From NCBI GenBank assembly GCA_965237725.1, contig OZ250151.1, positions 2,435,086 to 2,499,085 on the forward strand: a stretch of 64,000 nt of DNA. Direction: 5' to 3'. Below, in pieces: positions 1,851-37,757 of the stretch; the stretch's first letter is position 1, and every line of letters starts with the position of its first letter. Source of the stretch: Candidatus Spongiihabitans sp. Lineage in GTDB: Bacteria > Pseudomonadota > Gammaproteobacteria > Arenicellales > Poriferihabitantaceae. Made by a program: the position numbers and the translations under genes. The notes under the pieces are model-generated. The model was not told the DNA's origin, ran no database searches, and saw only the letters and a list, made by a program, of their open reading frames with translations.

Positions 1851-1894
1851 CTAGGATGATTGCAGCAAGGAAGATTGCATTTTCGAGTATCAGA

Positions 1895-3010: not shown

Positions 3011-3034
3011 GCTTTTAAAATTCCTGATCTGGTT

Positions 3035-4088: not shown

Positions 4089-4109
4089 TAATACTTCAAC
4101 CTGATTGTT

Positions 4110-4306
4110 CTAAGGAGCCTCTGATTAAAACTGGGCAGATCAAGTTGCCACTTATAAATGGCACTGGGAAAATGATCAAGTTCAAGGCGCGAAACGCACG
4201 CCCAAGTCAAATAAGCTTGGGCACGGCTATTGCGAAGTTTTGCAACGCAGAAATTGATCATTTTAAACGCAAATTGACTGTTCATGTTTTGATCAGAGGC
4301 TCCTTA
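4110..4306. mobile_element. MITE-1: non-autonomous element with ~20-bp terminal inverted repeats and flanking TA
   Basis: Left end TA-AGGAGCCTCTGATTAAAAC, right end GTTTTGATCAGAGGCTCCT-TA (20/21 inverted match). The interior shares ctgggc.gatcaagtt and aaaatgatcaag.tcaaggc blocks with MITE-2/3. No coding capacity. Confidence 0.6.
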
Positions 4307-6762: not shown

Positions 6763-6767
6763 ATATC

Positions 6768-8096: not shown

Positions 8097-8148
8097 TAAT
8101 CCCTATTGGCCCTATTGGCCTAACAGCGATTTCGGAGTAAGCCGTCTG

Positions 8149-9600: not shown

Positions 9601-9611
9601 AGCTATCTAAC

Positions 9612-10988
9612 CTAAAAGAAGGTTGCGGACACCTGAAACAGTTTTTCGACGTCGGGAATTTTTCGCTTATCGATGACAAATATAATCACATGATCGCCAT
9701 CTTCAATCACAACATCATCGTCCAGGCTAAGCAATTCATTGGCGCGCATGATCGCCCCAATGGTTGCGCCTTTGGGCAGTTTTATATCGGCCAGTTTACG
9801 GCCTACTATTTTTGATGTCTTTTTATCGCCGTGGGCCACGGCCTCTATGGCCTCAGCTACACCGCGGCGAAGAGAATGCGCCGCCACCACATCTCCTCGT
9901 CTTACATGGGATAACAATGCACTCACCGTACTCAACCGCGGTGAAATTGCGATATCCAACACGCTGCTTTCGATTAGCTCAATGTAAGCCGCACGATTGA
10001 CGATGGCCATTGCACGCCTGGCACCCAGTCTTTTGGCCAGCATTGCAGATAAAATATTCGCTTCATCTTCATTGGTCAGCGAGCAAAACAATTCCATACC
10101 ATCTATATTTTCCTGAACCAGTAAATCTTCGTCTGCGGCGTCACCGTGTAACACTACGGTATTTTCGAGCTGCTCGGAAACTCGTCGTGCGCGCATCGCA
10201 TCACGTTCAATTAATTTAACCTTAAATCCACGGCTCTCCAGTGACTTCGCCAGTCCAGCGCCAATATTGCCTGCGCCGGCGATCATCACCTTCTTGCCAC
10301 CTTCCTCGATGCTGCGAAGTTCCTGCATCACCTTTTTAATATCTTCCTGGGTAGCAATGAAAAACACTTCATCATCCGCTTCGATAATGGTTTTACCCGT
10401 GGGGATAATTGCCCGGTCATGTCGGTATATCGCCGCCACACGGGTTTTAACCGAAGGCAAATGATCCTTGAGATCTTTTAGTTCGTGACCAACCAGTGCG
10501 CCGCCGTGGAACGCTTTTAGTCCCACCAGCCGAATTTTCCCACCGGCAAAATCGATAACCTGCAATGCCCCAGGATACTCAATCAGGCGTTGGATTTGAT
10601 TGGTAAGAATTTGCTCGGGACTGATTAATACATCGATGGGGATGGATTCTTTACAGAACAACTCAGGGTGGTCGAGAAAATCAGAGGATCGCACCCGGGC
10701 AATTTTAGTTGGGGTATGAAACAAAGTATGGGCAACCTGGCATGCGACCATGTTGACCTCGTCAGAATTGGTCACCGCCAGCAGTAAATCCACGTCATCA
10801 ACCCCTGCCTGTTTAAGCACTTCGGGGGATGCTGCATTGCCCTGCACCGTTCGAATATCCATTCGATCCTGCATCATATTAAGCACATCGCGATCCTCAT
10901 CGATGACGGTAATGTCATTTTCTTCTCTGGAAAGAATTTCAGCGATTGATGCCCCTACCGTACCGCCGCCAAGAATGGCAATTTTCAT
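9612..10988 (-). CDS. trkA: Trk-system potassium uptake protein TrkA (tandem RCK/NAD-binding domains)
   Basis: 458 aa. MKIAILGGGTVG and a second IAGAGNIG Rossmann motif. Reads as collinear with E. coli TrkA. Confidence 0.95.
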   Translation of the reverse strand: MKIAILGGGTVGASIAEILSREENDITVIDEDRDVLNMMQDRMDIRTVQGNAASPEVLKQAGVDDVDLLLAVTNSDEVNMVACQVAHTLFHTPTKIARVRSSDFLDHPELFCKESIPIDVLISPEQILTNQIQRLIEYPGALQVIDFAGGKIRLVGLKAFHGGALVGHELKDLKDHLPSVKTRVAAIYRHDRAIIPTGKTIIEADDEVFFIATQEDIKKVMQELRSIEEGGKKVMIAGAGNIGAGLAKSLESRGFKVKLIERDAMRARRVSEQLENTVVLHGDAADEDLLVQENIDGMELFCSLTNEDEANILSAMLAKRLGARRAMAIVNRAAYIELIESSVLDIAISPRLSTVSALLSHVRRGDVVAAHSLRRGVAEAIEAVAHGDKKTSKIVGRKLADIKLPKGATIGAIMRANELLSLDDDVVIEDGDHVIIFVIDKRKIPDVEKLFQVSATFF

Positions 10989-13872: not shown

Positions 13873-15426
13873 TTAACCACCGTTTTTCCTGCGAATTTCA
13901 AACAATTTGACCGTATATCCGGCCCGGGAATAATCCTCGATGTGTACATCATATGCATTGTCTATTTGAGCCTGATCTACCAGCGCCTGGATTTTCCCAC
14001 CGCCGTGGATTTCGCTGGCTTTTAACAAATAAAAATGATCCGGGTACTCTGCCAGAGGCATTTGAAGATACTGTGGGGTAAAAACCGGGTAGACATTGGG
14101 GATCACAGAATCCACATATCCCATCATGGGATGTGAAACCATATAGTTAATTTCTTTGGTTACATAGGCCGGAATTTCGTCTGGCTTTTTGACTAAAGCG
14201 TTAATCCCATCAACCTTAACGGCGTTAAAACCCTGGTAGGCGTGGGACCGTTCGATAACTGAAAAACTGTTGAGATTCTCCGGGTAAAATTTACCATTGG
14301 TGTTAGCAATAAAAAAAACATGCATGGGAATCAGCAAAAACAGTATCAATTTCTGCTGACCCAGTTGTTTGATCAATAAAAGAATCGAGATTAGCGCAAA
14401 GGGTATCACCGGGACCAGGTAACGGGGCAGCAGTAAGGTTTGGGTAAATGAGGCCAATACAATAGTGGCGCAAAACACGGGGGTGATGAACAGACATATC
14501 AATTTAGCCTGACTTACTGGGTCGGGCTTGATGTTTTCCTGGGAACCTCTGAACCTGTTAGCCAACTGAAAAATAACCACAACCACTGAACAGCCAATCC
14601 CTGCCAACATTAACCATGACAAGTCAGGAATCGCGGTCATGCGGGCGTTCAATTGAGCAAACAATAATTCCGCATTGCCCCAGCCACCGCCTAGAAATTC
14701 AGAGCGACCCAGTAGCCCGGGCAAGTTCCTGATCAGGACTATCAGGCCACACAATATCAACACTCGCATACCGTTAGCAAACCGAGCCGATCTGGATTGA
14801 CCTATTGCGGTTATTAAAAGCATCAGCACCATGGCGATGCCCAAAGCTATGGCGGTGAATTTGACCAGCAGCGCAATAACGCAAATGCCAATGGCTATGT
14901 CGATTTGCCCTCGGCTCCAGCGCTCAACCGCCATGACGGATAAAACAAGGACTGGTATTTCGGTATACATATAACCCACCTGCACCAGGCTAACCGGAAA
15001 CAACAAAACAAAAAATCCGCTGGCTACCGCAACATAACGATTAAACCCCAAACGCTGGATTAGTTGCACAAAAATCATCAGCCCATAACTCATTGCCAGA
15101 AAAGTCAATGAATGCAGCGCCAGAAATGTGGATTGGGCATCGGCGGCAGATTTCATTGCCAACGCCGCGACCCAGGTTACCAGGGACAACGAATGTACAT
15201 TGGGGCCGCCTTGCCACCAGTTTTTTTCCTGCAGCAAGGCCAACAGATCAAAATTATTTTCAAACAAATAAATCGCCGGAGCAAATACGCCCATAGCCGT
15301 ATCCCAAACTGGCGGAGACAAGATGACACTATATTTGAGCACAATGATCGCCAGCAACCAGAACATCATCATGGATAAGTTGTGTCTGGATCGGGAGGTT
15401 AAATCGAAGTGTCGCGTCAGATCCAT
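13873..15426 (-). CDS. Large polytopic membrane protein with a C-terminal soluble domain; candidate GT-C-fold (ArnT/PMT-like) polyprenyl-P-sugar-dependent glycosyltransferase
   Basis: 517 aa. About 11-12 hydrophobic helices followed by a ~130-aa hydrophilic C-terminal domain. An acidic residue follows TM1 (PPVWDTAMG). Divergent from an operon that encodes an ArnC/GtrB-type GT2. The fold assignment is inferred from architecture and context only. Confidence 0.55.
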   Translation of the reverse strand: MDLTRHFDLTSRSRHNLSMMMFWLLAIIVLKYSVILSPPVWDTAMGVFAPAIYLFENNFDLLALLQEKNWWQGGPNVHSLSLVTWVAALAMKSAADAQSTFLALHSLTFLAMSYGLMIFVQLIQRLGFNRYVAVASGFFVLLFPVSLVQVGYMYTEIPVLVLSVMAVERWSRGQIDIAIGICVIALLVKFTAIALGIAMVLMLLITAIGQSRSARFANGMRVLILCGLIVLIRNLPGLLGRSEFLGGGWGNAELLFAQLNARMTAIPDLSWLMLAGIGCSVVVVIFQLANRFRGSQENIKPDPVSQAKLICLFITPVFCATIVLASFTQTLLLPRYLVPVIPFALISILLLIKQLGQQKLILFLLIPMHVFFIANTNGKFYPENLNSFSVIERSHAYQGFNAVKVDGINALVKKPDEIPAYVTKEINYMVSHPMMGYVDSVIPNVYPVFTPQYLQMPLAEYPDHFYLLKASEIHGGGKIQALVDQAQIDNAYDVHIEDYSRAGYTVKLFEIRRKNGG

Positions 15427-15617
15427 GATTAAACTTGAGAATTTAAAATCATTGTTTGTTGCAGTCCAATTGAGGATAATCCCGACATCCTATCATTTTA
15501 TTAGAATTTCTCCCCCAGTTGCAGTAAAACTCATTTTTCAAAACCAGGGCATATTGTATTTAAGAGGCAGATTCCATTGGCAGTTGAAATTACCCGACGC
15601 ATAGTCACGAACAAACT

Positions 15618-16352
15618 ATGAATAACAGTATCGATTATTTATACCACGGTGAGGCCAGGGATTTTATCAATGCCCTCGAACTGGAAATTTCCAGTCACAA
15701 GGCATTAAATCACCCATTTCTGGATCGCCTCAAGCAGGGCGATTTCGAAAACGTCGGTGCCGTGCTGCGGGATTATGCCCATCAATACTCCATTTATAGC
15801 GAATGGTTTACCCGCTATCTTGATGGTGTTATCAAAAATCTGGATTCGAAAGAGCATATTCAGGCCTTAATGGAAAACATGGAAGAAGAAAAAGGCAAGC
15901 CGAACAGCCCGAACATCGAAGAGCGGTCCCATGTGGAATTATTCCAACGGTTCAAGGATCAAATCGGTGCCGATCAGGACTATTGTAAAAATAATCCACC
16001 CTGCACCACAGTGTTGTTGTGGCGGGATTTGTTTCTGCAAAAGTGCAATTCCGAAATTCGCGGGGTCGGACTTGCTGCCATCGGCCTGGGTACGGAGTTT
16101 ATTATTTCGACAATTTACCCCAACATAATACGCGCCATCGAAGACCATACCGAACTCGGCCAGGACGGCAGTCTTTTTTTCCGCTTACACGTAGACTGTG
16201 ATGACAATCATGCAGAGGTGGTTAAAAAAATAACCGAAGAAGTTGCAGAGGATATATCTTCGCGGGAAGCCATTCGGTTTGGCGTATTTTCTTCATTAAA
16301 TTTGCGCGCCGCATTTTGGGACACCCAACTTTCCCGCGCGCTGCATCTATAA
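15618..16352 (+). CDS. Heme-oxygenase-like diiron (HDO) / iron-containing redox enzyme family protein (PqqC/CADD-like fold)
   Basis: 244 aa. LNHPFLDRLKQG, RDYAHQYSIYSEWFTRYL, NMEEEKG...SHVELFQRF and RLHVDCDDNHAE carry the E...H / E...H...D..H ligand pattern of this family. Confidence 0.7.
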   Translation: MNNSIDYLYHGEARDFINALELEISSHKALNHPFLDRLKQGDFENVGAVLRDYAHQYSIYSEWFTRYLDGVIKNLDSKEHIQALMENMEEEKGKPNSPNIEERSHVELFQRFKDQIGADQDYCKNNPPCTTVLLWRDLFLQKCNSEIRGVGLAAIGLGTEFIISTIYPNIIRAIEDHTELGQDGSLFFRLHVDCDDNHAEVVKKITEEVAEDISSREAIRFGVFSSLNLRAAFWDTQLSRALHL

Positions 16353-16527
16353 TAAATCTGTTGTCTGATCACCAGATCATGGGTTTCGAAAAACCAGTTT
16401 AGGGCAATAATCAAAACATTCATTGCGGTACAATACGCAATCGCCATAATTTTGGAAATCTGCTTTGGTTCTTTTCTGCAATAATCTGGGTTGAATAAGA
16501 ACACATGAACTTCTGTCACTAAACACC

Positions 16528-17388
16528 ATGCAAAAACAGGAAAAGTTAAATACACCATTAACTTTAAACGAATTGCTGGAGCGAACCATGATCACCGCAT
16601 CCAGCCCGGAAAATATCGATCGTAGCAAGCTCGCCGGGGTTCTCAACGATTACTCTTTTGCAGTGATTCGAGGCATCATCAACCGCGATGATATTCTCAA
16701 AGCTCGAGAAAAGTTTTTTCAACTCTATTCTCCCGATAACGATAATCCGGCGACTGGCGAGACTCCCGACCAAATAATGGATAATTACCAGAAGTTATCT
16801 ATTGGTGGCGCCGAGCACTCCGGGGTCTACCGTCCACGTTGTATGCGAACATTTTATAATCCGGTTTGGTCCGATGATATTTATGGACTGCGAAAATCAT
16901 TTACCCTGACCGCCCAGACCCGAAACATTATTTATGGCATGGATATGAATTATGCCATTGATAGAGTGGAAGACGGATTTTGGACTGCAGCGAGAATTCA
17001 CCATTTTCCTGCGGGCGGCGGGTTTCTGGTGTCCCACGTTGATGATGTGGTTCCCGTTGTACAAAAAGCAGAAGGCATTAGTCGGTATTTCCAGCCGCTG
17101 ATCGTAATGAGCAAGAAAGGCACTGCTGAAGATTGCGATTTTCAAACCGGCGGCGGATTCTTCGAAGTCAGTGGCCAACGCTACTATTATGAAGAAGGCT
17201 GTGAAATGGGCGACATTGTGATTTATTCTGGCGCAACGGTACACGGTGTGGCGGATATCGATTTGCATAAGATTTTTGATAATCGCCGCCCCGATGGCAG
17301 GATGGCGGCATTTGTTACCTTGTACAAGCATTTTGAGCGAAAGGGCCAACTGGAACAATACGTCGGCAAAGCTAAAAATGAATATTAG
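16528..17388 (+). CDS. Putative Fe(II)/2-oxoglutarate-type dioxygenase (cupin/DSBH-like)
   Basis: 286 aa. Candidate facial triad HHFPAGGGFLVSHVDD (HxD) plus a distal GATVHGV, and a basic GRMAAFVTLY near the C-terminus. Motif-level call only. Confidence 0.5.
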   Translation: MQKQEKLNTPLTLNELLERTMITASSPENIDRSKLAGVLNDYSFAVIRGIINRDDILKAREKFFQLYSPDNDNPATGETPDQIMDNYQKLSIGGAEHSGVYRPRCMRTFYNPVWSDDIYGLRKSFTLTAQTRNIIYGMDMNYAIDRVEDGFWTAARIHHFPAGGGFLVSHVDDVVPVVQKAEGISRYFQPLIVMSKKGTAEDCDFQTGGGFFEVSGQRYYYEEGCEMGDIVIYSGATVHGVADIDLHKIFDNRRPDGRMAAFVTLYKHFERKGQLEQYVGKAKNEY

Positions 17389-17400
17389 CAATTTGCAGTC

Positions 17401-18162
17401 ATGACGAAAAACAATAAACGGCACAACACTAAATCGGAATCATACAATTCCGCTGAACAAGGCATCCAGCAGGCTTTAGAGAACAGCGCCATCCCGGATT
17501 CAGAAATGCTGGAGAATTTACATTTATTTATCTCTCCCCAGCAGATGCGGCGGATTTTGTTTCTGTATGAAGTCTACAAACAAATTGTCACCGTGCCCGG
17601 GGTAATCATGCAATTTGGTGTGCGCTGGGGACGAGAGATGGCGCTATTCGAAAGTCTGCGCACGACTTTTGAGCCATTTAATCACAGCCGAAAGATCATT
17701 GGATTTGATACTTTTTCTGGCTACCAGGGGGTTGACTCCAAAGACGGTGGTCACAAGGTCATGCAAGACGGCAACCTGACCACCACCAGTAATTATGAGG
17801 ACGAACTGGAAAAAATTCTGACTCTTAGAGAGCAGCTAAGCCCTATCCCCCATGTCAAAAAATTTCAACTGATCAAAGGCAATGCAGAGGAAACCCTGGA
17901 AAAATACCTTGAAGAAAATCCCCAGACCATAATTTCCCTGGCTCACCTGGACATGAATCTGTATCGACCCACCAAAAAATGCCTGGAGTTACTGAAACCC
18001 AATATGCCAAAAGGCGCCATCGTTATTATCGACGAGGTCAATCTCGACATGATGCCGGGTGAAACCATTGCGCTGAAAGAGGTTTTTGGAATCAACAAGA
18101 TTCGTCTGCAACGAGACTCCCATGTCAATCCAACCTGGCCTGCTTATTTCGTAATCGAATAG
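17401..18162 (+). CDS. TylF/MycF-family SAM-dependent (sugar) O-methyltransferase
   Basis: 253 aa. GVIMQFGVRWGREMALF, FDTFSGY and LAHLDMNLYRPTKKCLELLKPNMPKGAIVIIDE match the TylF-type pattern (ECGV.rG / DsFeG / D.DlYesT). Confidence 0.75.
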   Translation: MTKNNKRHNTKSESYNSAEQGIQQALENSAIPDSEMLENLHLFISPQQMRRILFLYEVYKQIVTVPGVIMQFGVRWGREMALFESLRTTFEPFNHSRKIIGFDTFSGYQGVDSKDGGHKVMQDGNLTTTSNYEDELEKILTLREQLSPIPHVKKFQLIKGNAEETLEKYLEENPQTIISLAHLDMNLYRPTKKCLELLKPNMPKGAIVIIDEVNLDMMPGETIALKEVFGINKIRLQRDSHVNPTWPAYFVIE

Positions 18163-18192
18163 TTTTACGAAACTCTAAAATAATTTCTGCCA

Positions 18193-19152
18193 ATGAATGT
18201 GATTGAAGCCAGCGCGTCAAAAAAGGATTTCAGCGTTTTAATCCCGGTATACAACTCAGAAAAAAGCCTGCCGCTGGTTATCGAAGGCGTCAGGGAAGTT
18301 TTTGCGCATTCAAAATACAGCTATGAATTTGTGCTGGTTGACGATGGCAGCAAAGACCAATCCTGGGAAGTGATCAGCCAGCAACACCAACGGGGTGACA
18401 TCTGCGGGATTCGTTTCATGAAAAACCAGGGACACAGCATTGCCTTGAAACGCGGCCTGGAGTTTTGTCAGGGCGAATGGGTGATTACCATGGACGACGA
18501 TTTACAACATCCACCATCAGAATTACCCAAACTGATAAGCGCAAGCCGGGAGATGAAAGATGTAGACGTCATTATGGGCGCTTATGATTCAAGTCGTGGG
18601 AAAGCCCATAAAAGCCTGGGTGCAAAACTGTATCAATTCATTTTGCGATCGACATTTTCTTTATCCAAAGATTTAACAATCACCAGTTTTCGTATCATTC
18701 ACAAACGCGTGGTCCATGAAATTGTAAATCGAAATTTGGCAAATCCTCATGCCGGCTTCCTCATCCTCAGCGCCACAAACAAAATCGCCAACATCGAGGT
18801 TGAGCGTCACGACCGCCAGTATGGTGAGTCCGGGATGAGTCTGAAAAAATCGGTAACGACGCTTATTGACAGCCTGGTTCTGAATTCTGAAATACCTTTA
18901 AAAATGATTGGTTTTGGTGGTCTTTCACTTTCGCTGTTTGCGGTCTTGCTGGCAATCTACTATGCAGCAAAATTTTACTTTGGCCAAATTGGGGTTTCCG
19001 GATTTACCACAATTGTTTTGCTGGTGATTGGTTTTTCTGGAATTATTCTTGCTTCAATCAGTGTTGTCGGTTTATACATCATGCGACTGCTACAACAGGC
19101 GACATTTTCTCCACACTACAGTTTGCGTGAACACCTACCGCGTCCCGAATAA
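18193..19152 (+). CDS. GT2 polyprenyl-phosphate glycosyltransferase (ArnC/GtrB/DPM1-like) with two C-terminal TM helices
   Basis: 319 aa. FSVLIPVYNSEKSLP, FVLVDDGSKD and TMDDDLQHPPSELPKLI motifs. C-terminal helices LSLSLFAVLLAIYYAAKF and TTIVLLVIGFSGIILASISVVGLYI. Confidence 0.85.
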   Translation: MNVIEASASKKDFSVLIPVYNSEKSLPLVIEGVREVFAHSKYSYEFVLVDDGSKDQSWEVISQQHQRGDICGIRFMKNQGHSIALKRGLEFCQGEWVITMDDDLQHPPSELPKLISASREMKDVDVIMGAYDSSRGKAHKSLGAKLYQFILRSTFSLSKDLTITSFRIIHKRVVHEIVNRNLANPHAGFLILSATNKIANIEVERHDRQYGESGMSLKKSVTTLIDSLVLNSEIPLKMIGFGGLSLSLFAVLLAIYYAAKFYFGQIGVSGFTTIVLLVIGFSGIILASISVVGLYIMRLLQQATFSPHYSLREHLPRPE

Positions 19153-19179
19153 GCTCGTTCCGAATAAAAATGCGTCAAA

Positions 19180-20466
19180 TTACAATTTCAGACGACTGAC
19201 GATTTTATCCAGAGCCGAAGTGGGCCATTGATTCTGCTCCAGCATTTTTGTGGTTCGCTGAATGCCGGGCTCAGGATCATCTAAATCAATGAAAGCAGAA
19301 CTCAAACTGCCATCGATGGCATCCAGCCGGGAAAGATATTGTTCCATGGACAAATCCGGCTCGTCTCGTTTCCATACCTCAGCCAATGCCATCAAGTCGA
19401 CGTGGGCATAATCTGCTTTTATGGTTTCCTCACTGGCAACTACCATTTTTCCCGCGCTATCCTTTCCCAAATCATCTTGAATTAACTGTTCGGTGTAATT
19501 CAAACCCAGGCGCTGGTAGAAACCATTAAACAACCAGTGTCTGGGATTGATTTCTACCACCTTCCATCCACCACCTTTTTTGTCTTTTACAAATTCAATC
19601 ATCAGTATTCCCCGATAACCCAGAGCGCTGACAACGCTTTGCGCCAGTTCGAGCAATTCCTGCAACCAGGCGAACCTGAGCACGATGGCTGTGCCAAAAG
19701 GAAAAGGCTCTATGACTTCCTTGATTCCATTGCCCGCCATGGTGATATTGTGATTGCGATCAGCATATAAATAAAAGGGAATTTCATCGTATACCGAATC
19801 AAAAATCAGCTTTTCCTGAACCACAAGATCAAACCCATTATCGAGCTCTGCTTTTAAACAGGATCGTAGCTGATTTTGATCTTTGCATTCAATGGCCTTG
19901 TTGCCATTGTGTGCTCGATAAAATGTCTGCCCGTAATCTTTTACCGTGGGCTTGTATATAGCAGGATAAACCATGTTCTCAACAACAGTTTCAATCTCAG
20001 GGTGATGTTGGCAACGCTGGGTTACCGGCACAATTTCCGGATTTGACTTAGCCAGCAATTTGGCACATTCAAATTTATTGATCACATCCGACCGTGGCGT
20101 TGAAAAGTCCTGATGCCCCATCACCTTGATGAAATCCTGGAACTCATGGTAATGATCGAGCAGGAACATCAAGTTGGTATCTCCAGACGGCAGCACCATC
20201 AGCCGAGTGCCGTAGACCTTAAACAAATCTGAGAATATTTCTTTTAACTGAGTGACCGCCAATGCGCTATGAGTGAACGGATTGGAAATAACCCTGGGAT
20301 CGGAATAACAGTTCGAATACTGAGAATACCAAATCGGTGCTTCGGGCCAGGTAAATATGACAGGTATGGTGGGAATGCCAGCAGCCTTGCACGAACGTAA
20401 AATACCCAGAAAACAAATGTCATTGCTGCGTAACACTACCACCGGTAGCTGACTCGAATCAGCCAT
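19180..20466 (-). CDS. ATP-grasp family ligase (predicted carboxylate-amine ligase)
   Basis: 428 aa. A pre-ATP-grasp N-domain, YPAIYKPTV..., and the C-terminal GILMIEFVKDKKGGGWKVVEINPRHW motif typical of ATP-grasp enzymes. Confidence 0.7.
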   Translation of the reverse strand: MADSSQLPVVVLRSNDICFLGILRSCKAAGIPTIPVIFTWPEAPIWYSQYSNCYSDPRVISNPFTHSALAVTQLKEIFSDLFKVYGTRLMVLPSGDTNLMFLLDHYHEFQDFIKVMGHQDFSTPRSDVINKFECAKLLAKSNPEIVPVTQRCQHHPEIETVVENMVYPAIYKPTVKDYGQTFYRAHNGNKAIECKDQNQLRSCLKAELDNGFDLVVQEKLIFDSVYDEIPFYLYADRNHNITMAGNGIKEVIEPFPFGTAIVLRFAWLQELLELAQSVVSALGYRGILMIEFVKDKKGGGWKVVEINPRHWLFNGFYQRLGLNYTEQLIQDDLGKDSAGKMVVASEETIKADYAHVDLMALAEVWKRDEPDLSMEQYLSRLDAIDGSLSSAFIDLDDPEPGIQRTTKMLEQNQWPTSALDKIVSRLKL

Positions 20467-20467
20467 A

Positions 20468-21223
20468 TTACTTTTTAATTTTAAATGCGAGATGTAATGG
20501 TATGTCTTCGACGGGGGAAAAAAATTTATTATCCATTGCGATCATGTCTTCGGTGACGCCATACTCCTGAACAGTGGGAAGACGATCAAAACCTGCCTGG
20601 GCCAGTGCTTCGAAATAGTCATCCAGGGTTTTGGGAATCATCTGCACCTTTAATACGTTGCCATCCCGGCAATGAATTTCCCCCTGGCATAATTGATTTC
20701 GACTACTAAAGTAACCTTTGTTTTGGGTATCAAAATAAAACGGTGGGCTGTGACTGGTTTTGATAAAAGGGAACGAAGGGTGGGGTACAGAAAACACAAA
20801 CTCTCCTCCGGGTTTTAGCACCCTGAAAACTTCACCAAACGACGTTTTGGTTTGTTCAACATCCAGGTAGTTATAAACAAACACACCAACCGCCAGATCA
20901 AATGCCTTGTCATCATAGGGTAGCTGGGTAACATTGCCGCATTCATAGCTGATCACCTGATCATCTTCAGCCTGCTGGCCCTTTGCCATTTCCACCATGG
21001 CTTCGGACAGCTCAATGCCTCGGATTTGGCCTGCACCCATATCTGCCAGCACCCTTGCGCAATAGCCCTCTCCGGCGCCAAGATCAACAATGGATTTACC
21101 TTTCACATCTCCACATAGGGCAAACACTCGCGGGCGCGCAGTAAAATCCGACAGGGAATTCGGCTCACGCCGACTCCACCTGGCCGCGGTCTGGTTATAA
21201 AGTTCCTGGGTATCCTGACTCAA
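20468..21223 (-). CDS. Class I SAM-dependent methyltransferase
   Basis: 251 aa. VDLGAGEGYCARVLADMGA (motif I) and VLKPGGEFVFSVPHP. Its stop is 1 bp from the downstream ATP-grasp start. Confidence 0.85.
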   Translation of the reverse strand: MSQDTQELYNQTAARWSRREPNSLSDFTARPRVFALCGDVKGKSIVDLGAGEGYCARVLADMGAGQIRGIELSEAMVEMAKGQQAEDDQVISYECGNVTQLPYDDKAFDLAVGVFVYNYLDVEQTKTSFGEVFRVLKPGGEFVFSVPHPSFPFIKTSHSPPFYFDTQNKGYFSSRNQLCQGEIHCRDGNVLKVQMIPKTLDDYFEALAQAGFDRLPTVQEYGVTEDMIAMDNKFFSPVEDIPLHLAFKIKK

Positions 21224-21405
21224 AACAGTATTTGAATTATGTTAAAACTGAATTATAACCGTTGACCGATTTTATTTCGCCGGTTGTGAATACTTAAGAC
21301 ACTAACCATAAATCACAATGGAAAATTGCATAAACATCATCTGTACCTTAGGAACAAATTTCAGTAACATCCCCATGGAGCTTTATTCTAACTAAACAAC
21401 CCGCA

Positions 21406-22551
21406 ATGGAATTCGACCCAATCCCGTTTAATAGACCCTACATGACCGGGGATGAGCTCGAATATATACGTCAAGCCCACGAATACGGCAAGCTCGCCGG
21501 GGATGGTGCGTTCACTCAATTTTGTCATCGCTGGTTGGAAACTAACATCAGCTGCACAAAATCCCTGCTCACCCATTCTTGTACCGCCGCACTGGAAATG
21601 TGTGCCTTGCTGCTGAATATTCAGCCCGGCGACGAAATCATCATGCCTTCATTCACATTTGTTTCCACCGCAAATGCATTTGTTTTGCGTGGCGGAATAC
21701 CGGTTTTTGTCGATATCCGCGAAGACACCCTGAACATCGACGAATCCCTTATCGAAGCGGCCATCACGTCGCGTACCAAAGCCATCGTCGTGGTTCACTA
21801 TGCCGGCGTGGCCTGTGACATGGATAAAATTAATGCGCTGGCCAGCAAACATGATTTGCCGGTTATTGAAGATGCGGCCCAGGCCATCCTGGCAAAATAC
21901 AAAAACCAGCCCCTGGGTGGACTCGGTGATTTAAGCGCATTGAGTTTTCACGAGACAAAAAATATCATGGCAGGAGAAGGTGGTGCGTTGTTGATCAATG
22001 ACCACAAGCATATTGTAAATGCTGAGGTCATTCGGGAAAAAGGCACGGACCGATCACAATTTTTTCGTGGGGAAATTGACAAATACACATGGCAAAGTCC
22101 CGGCTCTTCATTCTTGCCCGGAGAATTGATTGCTGCTTTTTTGCGTGCCCAACTCGAAAATGCTCAGGAAATCACCCAGTCGAGAATGCTTCTCTGGAAC
22201 AACTATCACAAACTACTCGAGGACATGGAACAAAAGGGTCTGGTTCGACGACCTGTTGTGCCGCCAGACTGTGAACACAATGCTCATATTTATTATGTTT
22301 TACTGAATGATAAAATTAATCGACAAAAATTCCTGGAAGAATTTAAAAAACAGGGTATCCATCCGGTGTTCCATTATGTGCCATTACATTCATCCCCGGC
22401 GGGAAAACGATTTGGTAAAACCAGTGGCGCCATGACCCAAACCGACCGGCAGTCAGCACGTCTGGTTCGATTGCCACTATGGGTAGGATTAGCTGATTCC
22501 CAGCAGCAACGCATAGTAGAAATTCTTACCCAGCTTGCAGGTGTTTCTTAG
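21406..22551 (+). CDS. wecE: dTDP-4-amino-4,6-dideoxygalactose (Fuc4N) transaminase-like DegT-family aminotransferase
   Basis: 381 aa. Long collinear similarity to E. coli WecE as I recall it: PFNRPYMTGDELEYI..GKLAGDGAFT, IMPSFTFVSTANAFVLRG, VVHYAGVACDM, SFHETKN, IREKGTDRSQFFRGEIDKYTW, VFHYVPLHSSPAG. Confidence 0.88.
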   Translation: MEFDPIPFNRPYMTGDELEYIRQAHEYGKLAGDGAFTQFCHRWLETNISCTKSLLTHSCTAALEMCALLLNIQPGDEIIMPSFTFVSTANAFVLRGGIPVFVDIREDTLNIDESLIEAAITSRTKAIVVVHYAGVACDMDKINALASKHDLPVIEDAAQAILAKYKNQPLGGLGDLSALSFHETKNIMAGEGGALLINDHKHIVNAEVIREKGTDRSQFFRGEIDKYTWQSPGSSFLPGELIAAFLRAQLENAQEITQSRMLLWNNYHKLLEDMEQKGLVRRPVVPPDCEHNAHIYYVLLNDKINRQKFLEEFKKQGIHPVFHYVPLHSSPAGKRFGKTSGAMTQTDRQSARLVRLPLWVGLADSQQQRIVEILTQLAGVS

Positions 22552-22554
22552 ACG

Positions 22555-23313
22555 CTATTTATTGTAGCGTTTTCTCGCTATTTCAAGATCTTCTTCAGTA
22601 TCGATTCCCGGGCCCGGGGTTTCTACTGCTTCAACCACGAGAATCTTGTCTCCATGCCAGATGCTTCTAAGCTGTTCGAGTTTCTCACGATATTCCAGAT
22701 CACAACTGCTGAGGGCGGAAAACTTTTTCAGGTAAGCCACCCGATAGGCATAAATGCCCAGATGCCGACGCACGATTTCCCATGCATCAGCAGCAAGCCC
22801 TGAATCATTTTCGCTTCTCACCCAGGGAATGGTTGCGCGGCTAAAATAAACTGCATAATCATATTTATCCGTAACCACCTTAACAATGGATGGATCCTGT
22901 AACTGCTGAATGTCGTCGAGGGGTGCGCTGGCGGTTGCGGACATCGCTTTGGACTCTGAGAACAATGCATCAGCCAGCTGGTTAATCAGTGCGGCTGGCA
23001 TGTCCGGCTCATCTCCCTGAACATTGACGACGATGGTATCGTCATCGAAATTCAGAATTTCACAGGCCTCCGCTATTCGATCACTTCCAGATTCATGGTC
23101 TGATGATGTCAGCACGCTTTGTCCGCCAAATCCGGCAACCGCTTCGACAATTCGATTGTCATCGGTGGCAACAACCACACTGATCGCGTCACTACGTTTA
23201 CAACACTCGACCACATGCTGAATCATGGGCTTGTCACCTATGGTCACCAACGCTTTACCCGGCAGTCGGCTGGACTGATAACGAGCAGGAATGATAATGT
23301 GAAAAGGTGTCAT
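22555..23313 (-). CDS. kdsB: 3-deoxy-manno-octulosonate cytidylyltransferase (CMP-Kdo synthetase)
   Basis: 252 aa. IIPARYQSSRLPGKAL, NVQGDEP, and the msbA-lpxK-kdsB order. Confidence 0.95.
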   Translation of the reverse strand: MTPFHIIIPARYQSSRLPGKALVTIGDKPMIQHVVECCKRSDAISVVVATDDNRIVEAVAGFGGQSVLTSSDHESGSDRIAEACEILNFDDDTIVVNVQGDEPDMPAALINQLADALFSESKAMSATASAPLDDIQQLQDPSIVKVVTDKYDYAVYFSRATIPWVRSENDSGLAADAWEIVRRHLGIYAYRVAYLKKFSALSSCDLEYREKLEQLRSIWHGDKILVVEAVETPGPGIDTEEDLEIARKRYNK

Positions 23314-23345
23314 TTAATTAACTTCTGTTCTAATTAGCTTCTGTT

Positions 23346-24362
23346 CTAATTACTTGCTGTTGAACTTGGGAATATGTGAGATTCGATTTTCTGAAAAATC
23401 GATTCCTCGATGTTTACGTCCGCAGTCACCACCCAGATATTTTTTGCCATACTCATATCCCGACATTTTATCCCATCCTTTTCCGTCATCAGTAATTTTT
23501 CATCCCCACCAAATTCGAGATCGTTCTCGGTGTACTTATGATGATCAGGAAATGCATGGCTTACAAGATTAATTCCAGCGGCTTCGAGTTGGGAAAAAAA
23601 CCGTACCGGATTGCCCACCCCGGCTACAGCATGTACATTTTCTCCGCCAAAGTCGGATAACTCCCGTCTTGCGCCACTGGCCAGGTTATAGGTATCCCGA
23701 AGGACCATACTCATGGGGTGGATTGCGTACTCCTCCAGTTTATGCTTGCCCTGTTGAATATCATCATTGACCAGTATCAATTGCGCGCGTTCAAGGGCCG
23801 AAATCGGCTCCCGCAACGGCCCGGCGGGCAAACAAAAACCATTACCAAATCCATAGTTTCCGTCAATCACCACAACATCGAAATCACGGTTCAATGCAAA
23901 ATGTTGAAATCCATCATCGCTTACAACGACGTCACAACCCAGTTCATTAACCAAAACCTGTCCTCCGGCAGCCCGATTTGCACCCACCACCACCGCAACC
24001 TTGCAAACTTCAAAAATCATCTGCGGTTCGTCACCGACAAGATCAGTGGAAGTTGTTGCACTAACCTGGAGAGGTTGTATTTCACTGGCTCCTCCATAGC
24101 CTCTTGAAACCACGCCAGGCTGATAGCCTCGTTGTTGCAGAAATTTCACCAGGGCAATCACCACTGGGGTTTTGCCGCTACCCCCTGCGCTGATTCCACC
24201 AATCACGACAACTGGAACGGCCAGCGAAAAAGATTTAAATATGCCTACCCGATAGCAACCCTGTCGCAACTTATGTAGCAAAAGATACAAAAGCGAAAAT
24301 GGAACCAGTAAATAATTCAGCAGTCCTGGTTTGCGCCATCCTTGCTGTATTTTATCCAGCAT
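23346..24362 (-). CDS. lpxK: Tetraacyldisaccharide 4'-kinase
   Basis: 338 aa. P-loop GGISAGGSGKTP and SRGYGG motifs. Overlaps the msbA stop by 11 bp. Confidence 0.9.
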   Translation of the reverse strand: MLDKIQQGWRKPGLLNYLLVPFSLLYLLLHKLRQGCYRVGIFKSFSLAVPVVVIGGISAGGSGKTPVVIALVKFLQQRGYQPGVVSRGYGGASEIQPLQVSATTSTDLVGDEPQMIFEVCKVAVVVGANRAAGGQVLVNELGCDVVVSDDGFQHFALNRDFDVVVIDGNYGFGNGFCLPAGPLREPISALERAQLILVNDDIQQGKHKLEEYAIHPMSMVLRDTYNLASGARRELSDFGGENVHAVAGVGNPVRFFSQLEAAGINLVSHAFPDHHKYTENDLEFGGDEKLLMTEKDGIKCRDMSMAKNIWVVTADVNIEESIFQKIESHIFPSSTASN

Positions 24363-26127
24363 CTGTATCCGAATTTGTTTCTGTTTCTGTGCGCCGATAC
24401 TGGGTGTTGTACAGATGATAGTATTGCCCGTGTTGCGCCAATAATTCTTCGTGATTACCCCTCTCGATAATTTTTCCCTTGTCCAGCACCAAAATTAAAT
24501 CTGCGTTTTCGATTGTGCTCAATCGATGAGCGATTACCAGCGTAGATCGGTTTTTGATTAACTTGTGTATTGCCTTCTGTATATGCTGCTCGGACCGGGA
24601 ATCCAGTGATGAAGTGGCTTCGTCCAGAATTAAAATGGGCGCATCTTTGTATAACGCCCGAGCAATAGCAATACGTTGTCGTTGACCTCCGGATAAACGC
24701 GTCCCGGACTCGCCAACCATAGTATCCATTCCATCAGCAAAGGTATCTATAAATTCGGTGATGTGCGCCGCTTTCACCGAATCGGCCAGTTTCTTCTCAT
24801 CAATCTCACCGGATTCGCCATAAGTAATATTGTTTCTTACGTTATCGTCAAACAATACAATATCCTGGCTGACAATGGCCGCATTGTCTCGCAATGACGC
24901 CAGAGTTATGTTTTCAATGGGATGATCATCGATTGATATTTCACCTTTAAGCGGACTGTAGAATCTCATCAATGTAGATGCGACTGTGGACTTGCCTGCG
25001 CCCGATGGCCCTACCAGCGCCACTGTGGTTCCCGGTTCTATTTCAAAACTAATGCCATCCAGAATCGGCGTCTCATCTTCGGCATACCGAAATGAAACAT
25101 TTTTGAATGAAACCTTTCCCGAAACCTTTTCAAGTACCACCGTACCGTCATCTACCTCGGTCTCAAGATCCATTGTATTAAATACCGATTCCGCCCCCGC
25201 CATTCCGGTTTGTATCACTTCGTTGACCTTAGAAAGATTTTTTACTGGCCGCACGATCATGGTCATGGACACCAGATAGGATGTGAAAACCCCTGGTTTA
25301 ATTTCCAAGGCAAATGCAAACCAGATGACCACGGCAACGCCAATGCCCATAAGCAAAACCAGCAACGGAACACTGGCAGACAAAATCGCCGCTTTTTTCA
25401 TTGATTGTTGGCGATTGCGGTTATTGGCATCGAAAAATATTTTCTTTTCATGCTCATAGCCACCGAAAATTTTTACCAGCCTGTGACCCTGAAAACTCTG
25501 TTTGGCGATATGGGTTATGTCGCCGACACTTTCCTGAATCCTCGAGCTGATGTTTCTGAATCGTCCACTGGTAAACTTAAAGATATAAAACGCCGCAGGG
25601 AATATAACCAGAAATATCAGAGACAGTTTCCAGCTCAAATAAAACATCAGCGACAGCAAAAATATCGATTTAATAAAGTCTCGAAACAAAACCCTGAAAG
25701 CGCTGCTGCTGGCCCGTGCAACCTGCTCCACATCATAGGTCAATCTGGAAACCAGACTGCCGCTGGACTGATTGTCGAAATAACCCGTTGGCGCATAAAT
25801 CAAGCGATCAAACATTTTTTGTCGAAGGTCCTGGACAACCCGGCGGGCAACCCAGTTAATGCAATAACCGTCCACCAGATCTCCGAGGGCACGCGTCACC
25901 GCAATAAACACCAATGCCACGGGAATCCACTTTATATAAGTCGGGTCACGCTCAACAAAACCTTTATCCATCATCGGCTGCAAAACCCATGCGAATGAAG
26001 TATCCGCTGCAGCCACTACCAGCATGCCCAGCAATCCGGCCAGGAACGCCATTTTATAGGGCCACACATGGCGAAATAACCGTTTATACAGGTTAACGCT
26101 GGGCAATTTTTCGGTTGAGTCTGTCAC
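24352..26127 (-). CDS. msbA: Lipid A export ATP-binding/permease protein MsbA
   Basis: 591 aa. Six-TM ABC exporter domain, Walker A GPSGAGKST, signature LSGGQRQR, Walker B ILILDEATS. Upstream of lpxK. Confidence 0.9.
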   Translation of the reverse strand: MTDSTEKLPSVNLYKRLFRHVWPYKMAFLAGLLGMLVVAAADTSFAWVLQPMMDKGFVERDPTYIKWIPVALVFIAVTRALGDLVDGYCINWVARRVVQDLRQKMFDRLIYAPTGYFDNQSSGSLVSRLTYDVEQVARASSSAFRVLFRDFIKSIFLLSLMFYLSWKLSLIFLVIFPAAFYIFKFTSGRFRNISSRIQESVGDITHIAKQSFQGHRLVKIFGGYEHEKKIFFDANNRNRQQSMKKAAILSASVPLLVLLMGIGVAVVIWFAFALEIKPGVFTSYLVSMTMIVRPVKNLSKVNEVIQTGMAGAESVFNTMDLETEVDDGTVVLEKVSGKVSFKNVSFRYAEDETPILDGISFEIEPGTTVALVGPSGAGKSTVASTLMRFYSPLKGEISIDDHPIENITLASLRDNAAIVSQDIVLFDDNVRNNITYGESGEIDEKKLADSVKAAHITEFIDTFADGMDTMVGESGTRLSGGQRQRIAIARALYKDAPILILDEATSSLDSRSEQHIQKAIHKLIKNRSTLVIAHRLSTIENADLILVLDKGKIIERGNHEELLAQHGQYYHLYNTQYRRTETETNSDTDAG

Positions 26128-26212: not shown

Positions 26213-27187
26213 TTAATTGAGCTGTTTATGGGCCTTTCTTTCATCGCGAGGTGGAATACCAAAATATTCGCGATAACATTTGCTGAAGTGGGGGGTAGAT
26301 ACGAAGCCGCTGGCAAAGGCAATTTCGACTATGGGCATACTGGTCTGCAAAAGTAGCTGCCTGGCGTGCATCAGCCGCAGGCGCATATAATAACGCGTGG
26401 GCACACAGTGCAGGTATTTCTGAAACAGCCTTTCCAGTTGCCGCCGTGACAGCCCAACGTGACCGGCGATTTCATCCAGGCTAATCAACTCTTCTATATT
26501 GGCTTCCATGAATGCCACCGCTTCCGCCAGCTTTGGCTGACTGGCACCCAGTTGTAATCGTAACGGTAGTCTTTGACGGTCATTTCGACCACGGATACGT
26601 TCAACCAGAAATTCCTCTGCAATATCCGTGGCCAGGTCCCAGCCGTGTTTTTGTGCTATCAAATAAACCATCATATCCATGGCCGCGCTGCCACCGGCGC
26701 AGGTATAACGATCACGGTCAATTTCAAACAAGTCGGGGCTTATGATTAACTCGGGAAATCGCTCACGCAATCCAATCATATTTTCCCAGTGGATGGTGCA
26801 ACGATAATCTTTCAACAATCCGGCCTCAGCCAGAATATAGGTTCCCGTGCAAATCGCGCCGATGTGAACCCGGTTTTTGGCCTGCTCTCTAAGCCAGGTG
26901 GTAATTGGTCTTGTGGACTTGGTATCTATATGGGTGCCACCACAGACAAATACCGCATCAAGCTTTCCGGAACTCCTCATCTCTGTAGTGGCCACGGACA
27001 TTTCAGTACTGGCATACACAGGCTTGTCGGTCTCGGAAAGTATGACCCATTCATACAATTGTTTGCCCGATAACCGGTTAGCCATGCGCATCTGATCGAT
27101 AGCGGCGGTAAACGCCATCATCGAATACTCTGGCATAAGCAAGAAGCCATACCGATTAAATTCCGGGCTTAAACTAGTTTCTGACAT
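26213..27187 (-). CDS. GlxA-family transcriptional regulator (DJ-1/PfpI-like sensor domain + AraC HTH; GbdR/CdhR-like)
   Basis: 324 aa. N-terminal class-I-amidotransferase-like domain (GAICTGTYILAEAGLL) and a C-terminal AraC HTH (GFVSTPHFSKCYREYFGIPP). Divergent from the MttB-family gene. Confidence 0.85.
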   Translation of the reverse strand: MSETSLSPEFNRYGFLLMPEYSMMAFTAAIDQMRMANRLSGKQLYEWVILSETDKPVYASTEMSVATTEMRSSGKLDAVFVCGGTHIDTKSTRPITTWLREQAKNRVHIGAICTGTYILAEAGLLKDYRCTIHWENMIGLRERFPELIISPDLFEIDRDRYTCAGGSAAMDMMVYLIAQKHGWDLATDIAEEFLVERIRGRNDRQRLPLRLQLGASQPKLAEAVAFMEANIEELISLDEIAGHVGLSRRQLERLFQKYLHCVPTRYYMRLRLMHARQLLLQTSMPIVEIAFASGFVSTPHFSKCYREYFGIPPRDERKAHKQLN

Positions 27188-27335
27188 TAAAATCCATTGT
27201 TTTCTGAATAACAGTGATTATTAACCATGTCATGCCAGTGGCGCAATCGGTTATACCGAGGTCGCGCCATGGCCTGTGTTACAACCTGCATCACCCCATA
27301 CTCCATGTTTCGATCAAGTAACTAACAACCAATAC

Positions 27336-28868: not shown

Positions 28869-28928
28869 TCTGTTCGAAACCAGAGATCATGGCCTGAATC
28901 AAGACTTGTGCCAGGCCTCGATCGGACT

Positions 28929-29384
28929 TTAGATCAGGAATTTTCGCATATAGATTCGATCGAAGCCTTTTTCGGTAATCCTTCGAACTATGCTGTAACC
29001 CCATTTTTCATAAATTTCTACATTTTCAGTCATAAGTTCATGGGTATAAAGCTCAATAGCATCAAAGCCAAGTTGTGCCGCCCGCGCCTCCGCAAATGCC
29101 ACCAGTTTCTTGCCCAGCCCCTGACCCTGGGCCTGGTTTGATACCGCAACATTATCCAGCAAACAGCGTTCCTCATCGATGATCAACACCAGTACGCCAA
29201 CAACAATATCGTCAGACCTGATCACATAAGCTTCATCGTTTTTAATCCGATTCTCATAGTCATCCAGCATTGGCCCGGGGGGCTTGCCCAGGCGCTCGAT
29301 GTAATGCTCGTAAGCCTGGTTCACACAATCAATCATCCCGGGGATGTCGTCCAAAGTGGCACGCCGAATATCAGATGTGTCCAT
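28929..29384 (-). CDS. GNAT-family N-acetyltransferase
   Basis: 151 aa. AVSNQAQGQGLGKKLV acetyl-CoA binding motif (Q/RxxGxG/A). Confidence 0.85.
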   Translation of the reverse strand: MDTSDIRRATLDDIPGMIDCVNQAYEHYIERLGKPPGPMLDDYENRIKNDEAYVIRSDDIVVGVLVLIIDEERCLLDNVAVSNQAQGQGLGKKLVAFAEARAAQLGFDAIELYTHELMTENVEIYEKWGYSIVRRITEKGFDRIYMRKFLI

Positions 29385-29414
29385 TAATAGCTGGACCTGG
29401 GATGCATCCCAGAA

Positions 29415-30377: not shown

Positions 30378-30431
30378 GGCAGAAGTGTAACCAGCCGAGT
30401 TGGAACTAGCCAGCCCTGGCCAGCGCTACAA

Positions 30432-37590: not shown

Positions 37591-37627
37591 TATCCGTTAG
37601 CGCGTAATAAACCAATGAAAATAAAAA

Positions 37628-37701: not shown

Positions 37702-37757
37702 CCAGAATCGATACCAGTGCGCTTCTATAACAAAGTCTGGCTACGCATGAATCAAAA

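Follow-up and report, generated by a model that had tools for sequence, protein, structure and literature searches.

The window analysed here is a 64,000-nucleotide stretch of the genome of Candidatus Spongiihabitans sp. (contig OZ250151.1), in which an island of eight genes, termed g1 to g8, lies between def and kdsB. They are arranged in four transcription units whose strands alternate. g1 (13873–15426, 517 amino acids, aa) stands alone on the minus strand; g2 (15618–16352, 244 aa), g3 (16528–17388, 286 aa), g4 (17401–18162, 253 aa) and g5 (18193–19152, 319 aa) follow on the plus strand; g7 (20468–21223, 251 aa), one base upstream of g6 (19180–20466, 428 aa), lies on the minus strand, and g8 (21406–22551, 381 aa) closes the island on the plus strand. 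An initial annotation of the window had listed these reading frames with the same coordinates, strands and units, and our open reading frame (ORF) check recovers them unchanged. It had read the island as a system that makes a 4-amino-6-deoxyhexose, tailors it, parks it on a polyprenyl phosphate and attaches it to an envelope target.

Predicted functions of the island genes

The product of g8 is predicted to be a WecE-type dTDP-4-keto-6-deoxy-D-glucose 4-aminotransferase, as first called: it scores 596 bits against the WecE model NF008687 (cut-off 375) and 594 bits against TIGR02379 (cut-off 435), exceeding the equivalog cut-off, and it matches the solved WecE structures 6blg (E 4e-134) and 4piw (E 2e-132). 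g5 carries a PF00535 domain (E 1.6e-30), an MDDD motif of the DxD type and two hydrophobic C-terminal segments. It aligns from end to end with both ArnC (E 3.5e-33; residues 11–312 on model positions 6–309 of 316) and PgfS (E 1e-38; positions 3–303 of 308), the latter being its best NCBIfam match. On domain, motif and alignment, g5 is assigned to the ArnC/GtrB/DPMS-type polyprenyl-phosphate glycosyltransferases of family 2 (GT2), in agreement with the ArnC/GtrB-type enzyme with two C-terminal transmembrane (TM) helices described initially, and we propose that it acts as a polyprenyl-phosphate sugar synthase. Orthology with ArnC itself was rejected, as g5 reaches 115 bits against the equivalog cut-off of 529 for NF007986.

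The 517-aa product of g1 is predicted to consist of a polytopic membrane part and a C-terminal alpha/beta domain (approximately residues 375–517). Using its AlphaFold model (predicted local distance difference test, pLDDT, 89.9; predicted template modelling score, pTM, 0.90), Foldseek returned ALG9 as the best match in the PDB (E 3.6e-5), followed by DPY19, ALG12, STT3, AftA, PglB, Pmt4 and Emb. Almost all of the top 30 matches are GT-C enzymes, with TM-scores of about 0.45–0.53. In GT-C enzymes, the catalytic acidic residue sits right after the first TM helix; g1 has a PPVWD motif directly following TM1, and D42 is invariant in 21/21 family members. Because the N-terminus is positively charged, we take the PPVWD loop to be periplasmic. 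The modelled fold and the conserved first-loop acidic residue place g1, as a predicted member, in the GT-C superfamily. Every top match among solved structures is a polyprenyl- or dolichyl-phosphate-sugar-dependent GT-C enzyme, so that the model speaks against a non-GT-C fold for the protein, which the initial annotation had called GT-C-like. Based on the adjacency of g1 homologues to ArnC-like GT2 genes, we propose g1 as the final transferase, using a polyprenyl-phosphate-linked sugar.

Against Pfam, g1 gives no match at E-values up to 0.01, and its relatives give few, weak matches to GT87, PMT_2 or ALG10 (PMT_2 is touched by 2/21 relatives, E 0.0024, and GT87 by 2/21). Clustered at 90% identity, the family yields 24 clusters from a set of 5.8 billion proteins; the GT-C family of g1 is small and unannotated, and no Pfam model covers it. 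Assignment to ArnT/PMT_2 (GT83/GT39; PF13231, PF02366) was rejected because g1 has no Pfam match. A public version of the protein (P0001) is 473 aa long and starts at M45; as such a start would leave out both TM1 and the invariant PPVWD motif, we prefer the 517-aa reading.

g2 matches PF14518 (E 3e-21, 76 bits, gathering cut-off 28.9), and its closest sequence matches are CADD/CT610 and 4-aminobenzoate synthase (E 4e-9) and BesC (E 5e-6). All six metal ligands (E...H, E, H-x3-D-x2-H) align with those of CADD. With this family match and the complete ligand set, g2 is predicted to be a haem-oxygenase-like diiron oxidase (HDO), and the diiron HDO-fold call made at the outset stands. A CADD-type 4-aminobenzoate (pABA) synthase was rejected, as g2 scores 62 bits against TIGR04305 (cut-off 200) and does not conserve the Tyr/Lys pair, Tyr27 and Lys152, which we take to be essential for the pABA chemistry of CADD; against the BesC model, g2 scores 31 bits (cut-off 500). 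g7 matches Methyltransf_11 and Methyltransf_25 (E 5e-20), which upholds its earlier reading as a putative class I S-adenosylmethionine-dependent methyltransferase, and its nearest solved relatives are N-methyltransferases, namely ToxA (E 8.5e-17) and the phosphoethanolamine N-methyltransferases. In more than 15 loci, a g2-type HDO lies directly upstream of a g7-type methyltransferase and an ATP-grasp ligase, and the order HDO-methyltransferase-ATP-grasp is conserved across loci. For g2 we propose the oxidative tailoring of an acyl or amino-acid moiety. One apparent HDO-methyltransferase fusion (P0392) was set aside, since this metagenomic gene call appears to be truncated and full of errors.

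The single sequence of g6 scores 19.3 bits against the ATP-grasp Pfam model, just below the cut-off of 19.8 bits, so that its initial ATP-grasp call is borderline for the sequence itself and holds at the profile level. A family profile of 36 relatives matches carbamoyl-phosphate synthetase (E 3e-11) and 2pn1 (E 3.6e-10) in the PDB, as well as biotin carboxylase, D-Ala-D-Ala ligases and L-amino-acid ligases, and PF02786 is matched by 23/36 relatives. The invariant residues K172, E291, E305, N307 and R309 comprise the conserved Lys and the E-x-N Mg2+ ligands expected of the predicted ATP-grasp ligase. In most loci long enough to tell, the g6-type ligase sits with WecE and GT2. Because of its constant association with WecE and its replacement by an acyltransferase in one Porticoccus locus (L017), we propose that g6 N-acylates the 4-amino group of the sugar. 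In a 2026 survey, 1447 HDOs were listed next to ATP-grasp ligases; they fall into at least 25 types of cluster, of which the survey characterises only the mangotoxin type, and an HDO that modifies an amino acid beside an ATP-grasp ligase is a recognised theme (PMC13185094). This precedent, together with an L-amino-acid-ligase-type ATP-grasp gene beside WecE and g3 homologues in Halomonas, makes an amino acid the probable acyl unit.

g3 has no Pfam match and no PDB sequence match. Its predicted model (pLDDT 92.7) is a double-stranded beta-helix, for which Foldseek returns AndA, FtmOx1, AsqJ, EasH and P4H at E-values of 5e-8 to 2e-6. H170, H239 and R258 are invariant in the family, and position 172 is D or E in 32/33 sequences. 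The modelled fold, metal triad and 2-oxoglutarate (2OG)-binding Arg identify g3 as a predicted Fe(II)/2OG dioxygenase from a family without a Pfam model, which confirms and specifies the HxD...H oxygenase of the initial annotation. None of its 111 homologues is named. A public version of g3 (P0030) has 266 aa and is shorter than the 286-aa ORF. g3 always adjoins a methyltransferase, either g4 or a Methyltransf_23 protein, and this constant pairing suggests that a hydroxyl group is introduced and then O-methylated. g4 scores 25.2 bits against PF05711 (TylF; cut-off 23) and matches CalS11, a TDP-rhamnose 3'-O-methyltransferase, with E 7e-52 over residues 18–236. The TylF-type call thus holds for the family and is sharpened to a CalS11-like one, making g4 a putative CalS11/TylF-type nucleotide-sugar O-methyltransferase; the likeness would place one methylation on a hydroxyl of the dTDP-sugar. 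Orthologues of g4 occur in L026 (74% identity), L081 (83%), L082, L054 and L070.

Co-occurrence and separability of the island genes

The same genes recur together elsewhere, and the island is therefore not a chance juxtaposition. In a metagenome scan seeded with the ATP-grasp family, a co-directional run WecE-HDO-g7-ATP-grasp-GT2 was found in more than 15 loci from several phyla (L029–L037, L050, L054–L057, L059 and L070). Two closer relatives, L081 and L082, have the divergent g1/HDO-g3-g4 layout of the window beside def, and in L082 this segment adjoins def-fmt-rsmB-trkA, as it does in the window. The L082 contig carries two diverged copies of the def/g1/HDO segment (1–2841 and 6671–9689), and its g1 is split into calls of 220 aa and 292 aa, reflecting a frameshift, a pseudogene or an assembly artefact. 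In a Spirochaetaceae metagenome-assembled genome (MAG; L008), g1-g3-methyltransferase faces LPG_synthase_TM-GT2-ATP-grasp-g7-HDO-WecE, and akin layouts are seen in L006/L012, L007 and L030–L032. The g1 and g3 homologues of L008 lie in one frame with no stop between them (2091–4520, 809-aa ORF), an arrangement explained by a fusion of GT-C enzyme and dioxygenase or else, in this GC-rich DNA, by chance or a sequencing effect.

Viewed from g1, among GTDB genomes an ArnC-like GT2 lies within 10 kb of g1 in about 12 of 17 informative loci from at least six phyla, often with WecE. Loci combining g1 and GT2 span Spirochaetota, Deltaproteobacteria, Thermoanaerobaculia, Actinomycetes, Saccharimonadales and Porticoccus, and the GT2 directly adjoins g1 in L016, L018 and L021. 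In Porticoccus L019, a sulfatase-family protein and g1 are followed by WecE, a methyltransferase, GtrA, an ATP-grasp ligase, an oxidoreductase and GT2; in Porticoccus L017, a hexapeptide acyltransferase and a KASIII-like enzyme take the place of the ATP-grasp ligase. A second class of loci has a distant ATP-grasp protein (31–39% identity) with WecE and GT2, without HDO and g7. The recurring core consists of WecE, an N-acylating enzyme, an ArnC-like GT2, a flippase candidate and a GT-C protein, and the acylation chemistry varies by lineage. The loci of the HDO-less class (L041, L044, L052, L060 and L062) also contain an octopine/nopaline-dehydrogenase-like gene, a 'sugar-transfer associated' ATP-grasp gene, a roughly 610-aa protein showing a weak B12-binding match, and large polytopic proteins without a Pfam match. 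An hhalign comparison of the g1 profile with the large unannotated membrane proteins of L036 and L041 detected no similarity, a negative of little weight because these were single sequences.

The initial annotation had asked whether the eight genes travel together. They are co-conserved across phyla; they are not, however, indivisible. In the metagenomic relative L001, synteny is the same over about 20 kb (ilvA, a PCMT-like gene, TolC, trkH, trkA, rsmB, fmt and def to one side; kdsB, lpxK, msbA, a gbdR-like gene and mttB to the other), and g1 alone lies between kdsB and def. All five genes from msbA to def (msbA-lpxK-kdsB-g1-def) share a strand there, and 137 bp separate kdsB from g1. As L001 has g1 alone in the same synteny, the seven other genes represent an insertion or a deletion beside a resident g1. 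Conversely, a 3.4-Mb metagenomic contig (L026) carries g2–g8 in the same order at 56–74% identity, with an extra 128-aa EamA-like gene after the GT2 and with GT4 genes and an LpxL-type acyltransferase around the module; it has no g1 within 10 kb of the seven-gene set, and the g1 family search returned none from that contig.

g3 also has a homologue of 48% identity, together with a second paralogue of weak similarity, in an O-antigen/capsule-type cluster of Halomonas sp. M4R1S46 (L027; CP107008.1, 2497–20789). This cluster contains RmlB-like, GT56 (WecF-like), WecE-like, L-amino-acid-ligase-type ATP-grasp, Amidohydro_2, Wzy, RmlA and Wzc genes and is interrupted by transposases.

Proposed pathway, acceptor and competing explanations

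With a probability of roughly 0.6, we interpret the island as a three-component envelope glycosylation system (cytoplasmic GT2, flippase and periplasmic GT-C enzyme) handling a heavily tailored 4-amino-4,6-dideoxyhexose. This supports the overall interpretation of the initial annotation, with corrections: the predicted fold of the 517-aa protein is GT-C, the genes are co-conserved in other genomes, and among the island homologues only WecE has a characterised pathway in our model, structure and literature searches. From the observed gene content, folds and families, catalytic motifs and gene co-occurrence, we infer the substrates, step order, acyl group, flippase and acceptor as follows. WecE (g8) would aminate dTDP-4-keto-6-deoxy-D-glucose, supplied by RmlA/RmlB encoded outside the window. 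g6 would then join a small carboxylate, most probably an amino acid, to the 4-amino group so formed, and g7 (probably by N-methylation) and the HDO g2 (by oxidation) would modify the acyl residue before or after ligation. g3 and g4 may act as a hydroxylate-then-methylate pair, or g4 may methylate a sugar hydroxyl at the dTDP-sugar stage. The finished sugar would be moved onto undecaprenyl phosphate by g5 and carried across the membrane by a flippase encoded outside the island, and g1 would transfer it to an envelope acceptor, here most likely lipid A or the Kdo-core of lipopolysaccharide (LPS).

Several observations weigh against this reading. g5 falls far below both the ArnC and the PgfS equivalog cut-offs, and ArnT is absent among the 50 best fold matches of g1. 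Hydropathy and positive-inside counts did not fix the membrane side of the C-terminal domain of g1. The residues of g2 aligned with Tyr27 and Lys152 of CADD are Leu and Ile. Neither rmlA nor rmlB is found within the window. g1 and the seven-gene set are separable (L001 and L026) and thus only putatively coupled in the window. The g1 family also occurs in MAGs of Actinomycetes, Acidimicrobiia and Saccharimonadales, all LPS-less. Finally, no flippase-like ORF is present in the island, whose intergenic gaps measure only 27–191 bp; the ORF list thus agrees with the earlier observation that a GtrA/ArnEF-like flippase gene is missing. In relatives, by comparison, flippase candidates lie beside the GT2: a pair of EamA proteins in L036 (4821–5590) that exceed the Pfam cut-off, GtrA in L019 (13776–14219), a single small EamA protein in L026 (12637–13023) and, near the GT2, LPG_synthase_TM in L008 (5484–6470), L041 and L017. 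The small EamA proteins of these relatives have four TM helices, are single or paired and are ArnE/F-like. Because relatives carry such candidates, of which the window has none, the absence of a flippase gene is a feature of this locus and not of the system.

For the acceptor, gene context makes lipid A or the inner/Kdo core plausible in this organism. An LPS target is favoured by the neighbouring kdsB-lpxK-msbA genes (in the window and in L001), by LpxO-family and DgkA genes and by an LpxL-type gene near homologues. In L003–L005 and L013 (8629–11563; gammaproteobacterial MAG), an LpxO-family (Asp/Arg hydroxylase) gene, dgkA and g1 are co-directional with gaps of 20–30 bp, a run that looks like a lipid-A-remodelling operon, and in Porticoccus a sulfatase-family (EptA/OpgB-like) membrane protein is encoded directly upstream of g1. 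We tentatively consider, while judging it somewhat more doubtful than probable, that the locus represents the first use of an HDO in an envelope glycoconjugate, in which an ATP-grasp-ligated amino-acyl 4-amino-6-deoxyhexose, borne on undecaprenyl phosphate, is put on lipid A or the inner core by an unrecognised GT-C family; the amino-acyl group would then possibly be N-methylated, cationic or N-oxygenated.

The same mechanism could serve an acceptor other than LPS, such as a protein (PgfS/PgfM- or PMT-like O-glycosylation), a capsule or O-antigen side branch, or periplasmic glucans, and we regard this as unlikely though deserving serious attention. PgfS, the NCBIfam model that g5 matches best, is the GT2 of a machinery for protein O-glycosylation, the fold matches of g1 include the protein-modifying DPY19, PMT, PglB and STT3, and an exopolysaccharide-type cluster encoding a phosphoglycosyl transferase together with a DegT aminotransferase lies at the left end of the window. 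Moreover, the occurrence of g1 homologues in LPS-less lineages implies that the acceptor is not lipid A across the whole family. Gammaproteobacterial g1 loci, on the other hand, are repeatedly found by kdsB-lpxK-msbA, by LpxO-family and DgkA genes or by LpxL-type genes, and the island has no obvious target protein gene. It is also unlikely, in our estimate, that two independent systems merely adjoin here, with g1 a resident housekeeping GT-C enzyme using another lipid-linked donor and the seven-gene module, inserted beside it, feeding another transferase or acceptor. This would explain why L001 has g1 alone in otherwise identical synteny, why L026 has the module without g1, and why L036 and the HDO-less loci have other large unannotated polytopic proteins, not g1, by the module. 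It fits less well with the adjacency of g1 to the module or to WecE and GT2 in Spirochaetaceae, Deltaproteobacteria, Thermoanaerobaculia, Actinomycetes, Porticoccus and L030–L032, with the retention of the same divergent g1/HDO promoter region in L081 and L082, or with the base composition of the island, which is not deviant and gives no sign of recent insertion.

Two further explanations would uncouple the sugar from a lipid-linked donor or the tailoring trio from the sugar. If g5 were an ordinary cytoplasmic GT2, the island would supply a dTDP-sugar to a Wzy- or ABC-dependent polysaccharide, with g1 as a polymerase- or ligase-like protein, as might be suggested by the Halomonas sp. M4R1S46 cluster, in which g3 and WecE homologues stand in an O-antigen/capsule context (GT56, Wzy, Wzc, RmlA) without an ArnC-like GT2. 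We consider this very improbable, since the alignment of g5 to ArnC and PgfS covers its whole length and both C-terminal TM helices, since the GT2 of relatives is accompanied by GtrA, EamA or LPG_synthase_TM genes, and since the fold matches of g1 are all lipid-phosphate-sugar GT-C enzymes and its own family has an invariant first-loop Asp. Even less weight falls on a free peptide-like natural product of the mangotoxin type, made by the HDO, methyltransferase and ATP-grasp ligase independently of the sugar genes: clusters with HDO and ATP-grasp are known to make small peptides (PMC13185094), but in more than 15 loci these three genes sit inside a single co-directional operon, with WecE on one side and GT2 on the other, and the island contains no exporter, second ligase or resistance gene.

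The three-component envelope system proposed here shares several features with the Arn pathway (PmrHFIJKLM; ArnA–F and ArnT; 4-amino-4-deoxy-L-arabinose, L-Ara4N, on lipid A), namely a 4-aminotransferase of the DegT family, N-acylation of the new amine prior to its transfer to the lipid carrier, an ArnC-like GT2 ending in two TM helices, a GT-C final transferase and an LPS gene context. Arn, however, uses UDP-Ara4O, whereas the island would use a WecE-derived dTDP-6-deoxyhexose. The Arn partners ArnA (formyltransferase/decarboxylase), ArnD (deformylase) and ArnE/F have no representative in the island, the neighbouring fmt being a tRNA formyltransferase and not an ArnA partner, and the HDO, 2OG dioxygenase, ATP-grasp ligase and two methyltransferases of the island have no Arn counterpart. 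Membership in the Arn pathway was therefore rejected, given the different nucleotide sugar, the absence of ArnA, ArnD and ArnE/F, the score of g5 below the ArnC cut-off and the assignment of g1 outside ArnT/PMT_2.

A three-component logic, in which a GT2 makes a polyprenyl-phosphate sugar, the product is flipped and a polytopic GT-C-type enzyme transfers the sugar outside the cytoplasm, is shared between the island and GtrA/GtrB/Gtr(type), CsbB/GtcA/YfhO, PgfS/PgfM, FlmF/FlmK, LgmA/LgmB and PpgS/Rv3779. To our knowledge, the sugars of these systems are unmodified or simply deacetylated hexoses or hexosamines and include no 4-amino-4,6-dideoxyhexose, and we know of no oxidative or ATP-grasp tailoring genes in them. 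N-acylated 4-amino-4,6-dideoxyhexoses are common in O-antigens, and g8, which passes the WecE equivalog model, is shared with the Fuc4NAc and Qui4N(acyl) pathways of enterobacterial common antigen (ECA) and O-antigen. ECA is, as far as we know, confined to Enterobacterales; ECA-type synthesis employs a WecD-type acetyltransferase and a WecF/GT56 transferase, neither of which is in the island, and the ECA or O-antigen sugar goes to an oligosaccharide repeat unit, whereas the island sugar would go to a polyprenyl monophosphate GT2.

With CADD, BesC, SznF and MboA, g2 shares the PF14518 match and the full six-residue diiron ligand set, and it is adjacent to an ATP-grasp ligase like the HDO of the mangotoxin cluster; its setting is envelope glycan biosynthesis rather than a secondary-metabolite cluster. 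g4 resembles CalS11 of calicheamicin biosynthesis over almost its full length, which suggests methylation of a dTDP-6-deoxyhexose hydroxyl, in a context of primary envelope biosynthesis unlike that of CalS11. In the literature searched, we found no report linking an HDO, CalS11 or an ATP-grasp ligase to LPS or undecaprenyl systems. Within the same scope, no report of an HDO, a 2OG dioxygenase or an ATP-grasp ligase in such a system came up, in line with the earlier statement that no characterised Arn/Gtr-type system is known to have them.

Lipid-carrier-dependent periplasmic glycosylation of the Arn and Gtr types controls resistance to polymyxin and cationic peptides, masking of phage receptors and serotype. 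Our proposed system would add a new sugar class, 4-amino-4,6-dideoxyhexose on polyprenyl monophosphate, and a GT-C family undetected by current Pfam models; both the GT-C family of g1 and the 2OG-dioxygenase family of g3 are missed by current domain libraries. The enzymes used for tailoring (an HDO, a 2OG dioxygenase, an ATP-grasp ligase and two methyltransferases) have hitherto been tied to natural-product biosynthesis, and two enzyme groups, an HDO subfamily (about 100 members) and a family of 2OG oxygenases (about 110 members), would gain a defined pathway context and a probable substrate class. LPS chemistry would gain a concrete mass-shift prediction and, if the HDO-dependent decoration of lipid A or the inner core considered above is true, the locus would stand for a chemically new class among the charge or surface modifications of LPS, spread over several phyla.

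Flanking genes and other features of the window

The housekeeping flanks named in the initial annotation are confirmed by NCBIfam models. On the left lie trkH, trkA, rsmB, fmt and def, and on the right kdsB-lpxK-msbA (22555–26127, minus strand; NCBIfam equivalogs for Kdo activation, the lipid A 4'-kinase and the lipid A flippase); the flank proteins reach the model cut-offs or fall just short of them. The GC content of the island is 0.451, compared with 0.476 for the window, and its GC content at third codon positions lies inside the range of the flanks. Scanning the island for repeats, promoters or terminators and Rfam families gave nothing above chance, no mobile-element signature and no flanking repeats. 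Recent horizontal acquisition of the island is not supported, as its base composition is close to that of the flanks and flanking repeats are absent.

The left end of the window (522–3886) holds the end of an exopolysaccharide-type cluster with a polyprenyl glycosylphosphotransferase (522–1850), a PseC-like DegT-family aminotransferase 32% identical to g8 (1895–3010) and a HetI-like phosphopantetheinyl transferase (3035–3886). Past msbA, a GbdR-like regulator precedes an MttB-family methyltransferase gene (27276–28868), and these lie together with a gene for an AcsV-like corrinoid activation protein (30432–32450). The MttB gene is an uninterrupted ORF, yet it contains an Rfam PYLIS_3 match at 28369–28467, and the region from 26213 to 32450 is probably a non-pyrrolysine quaternary-amine demethylation locus. 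Three tRNA genes and a class A RNase P RNA, all ordinary-looking, lie at 37072–37832 and 44967–45309.

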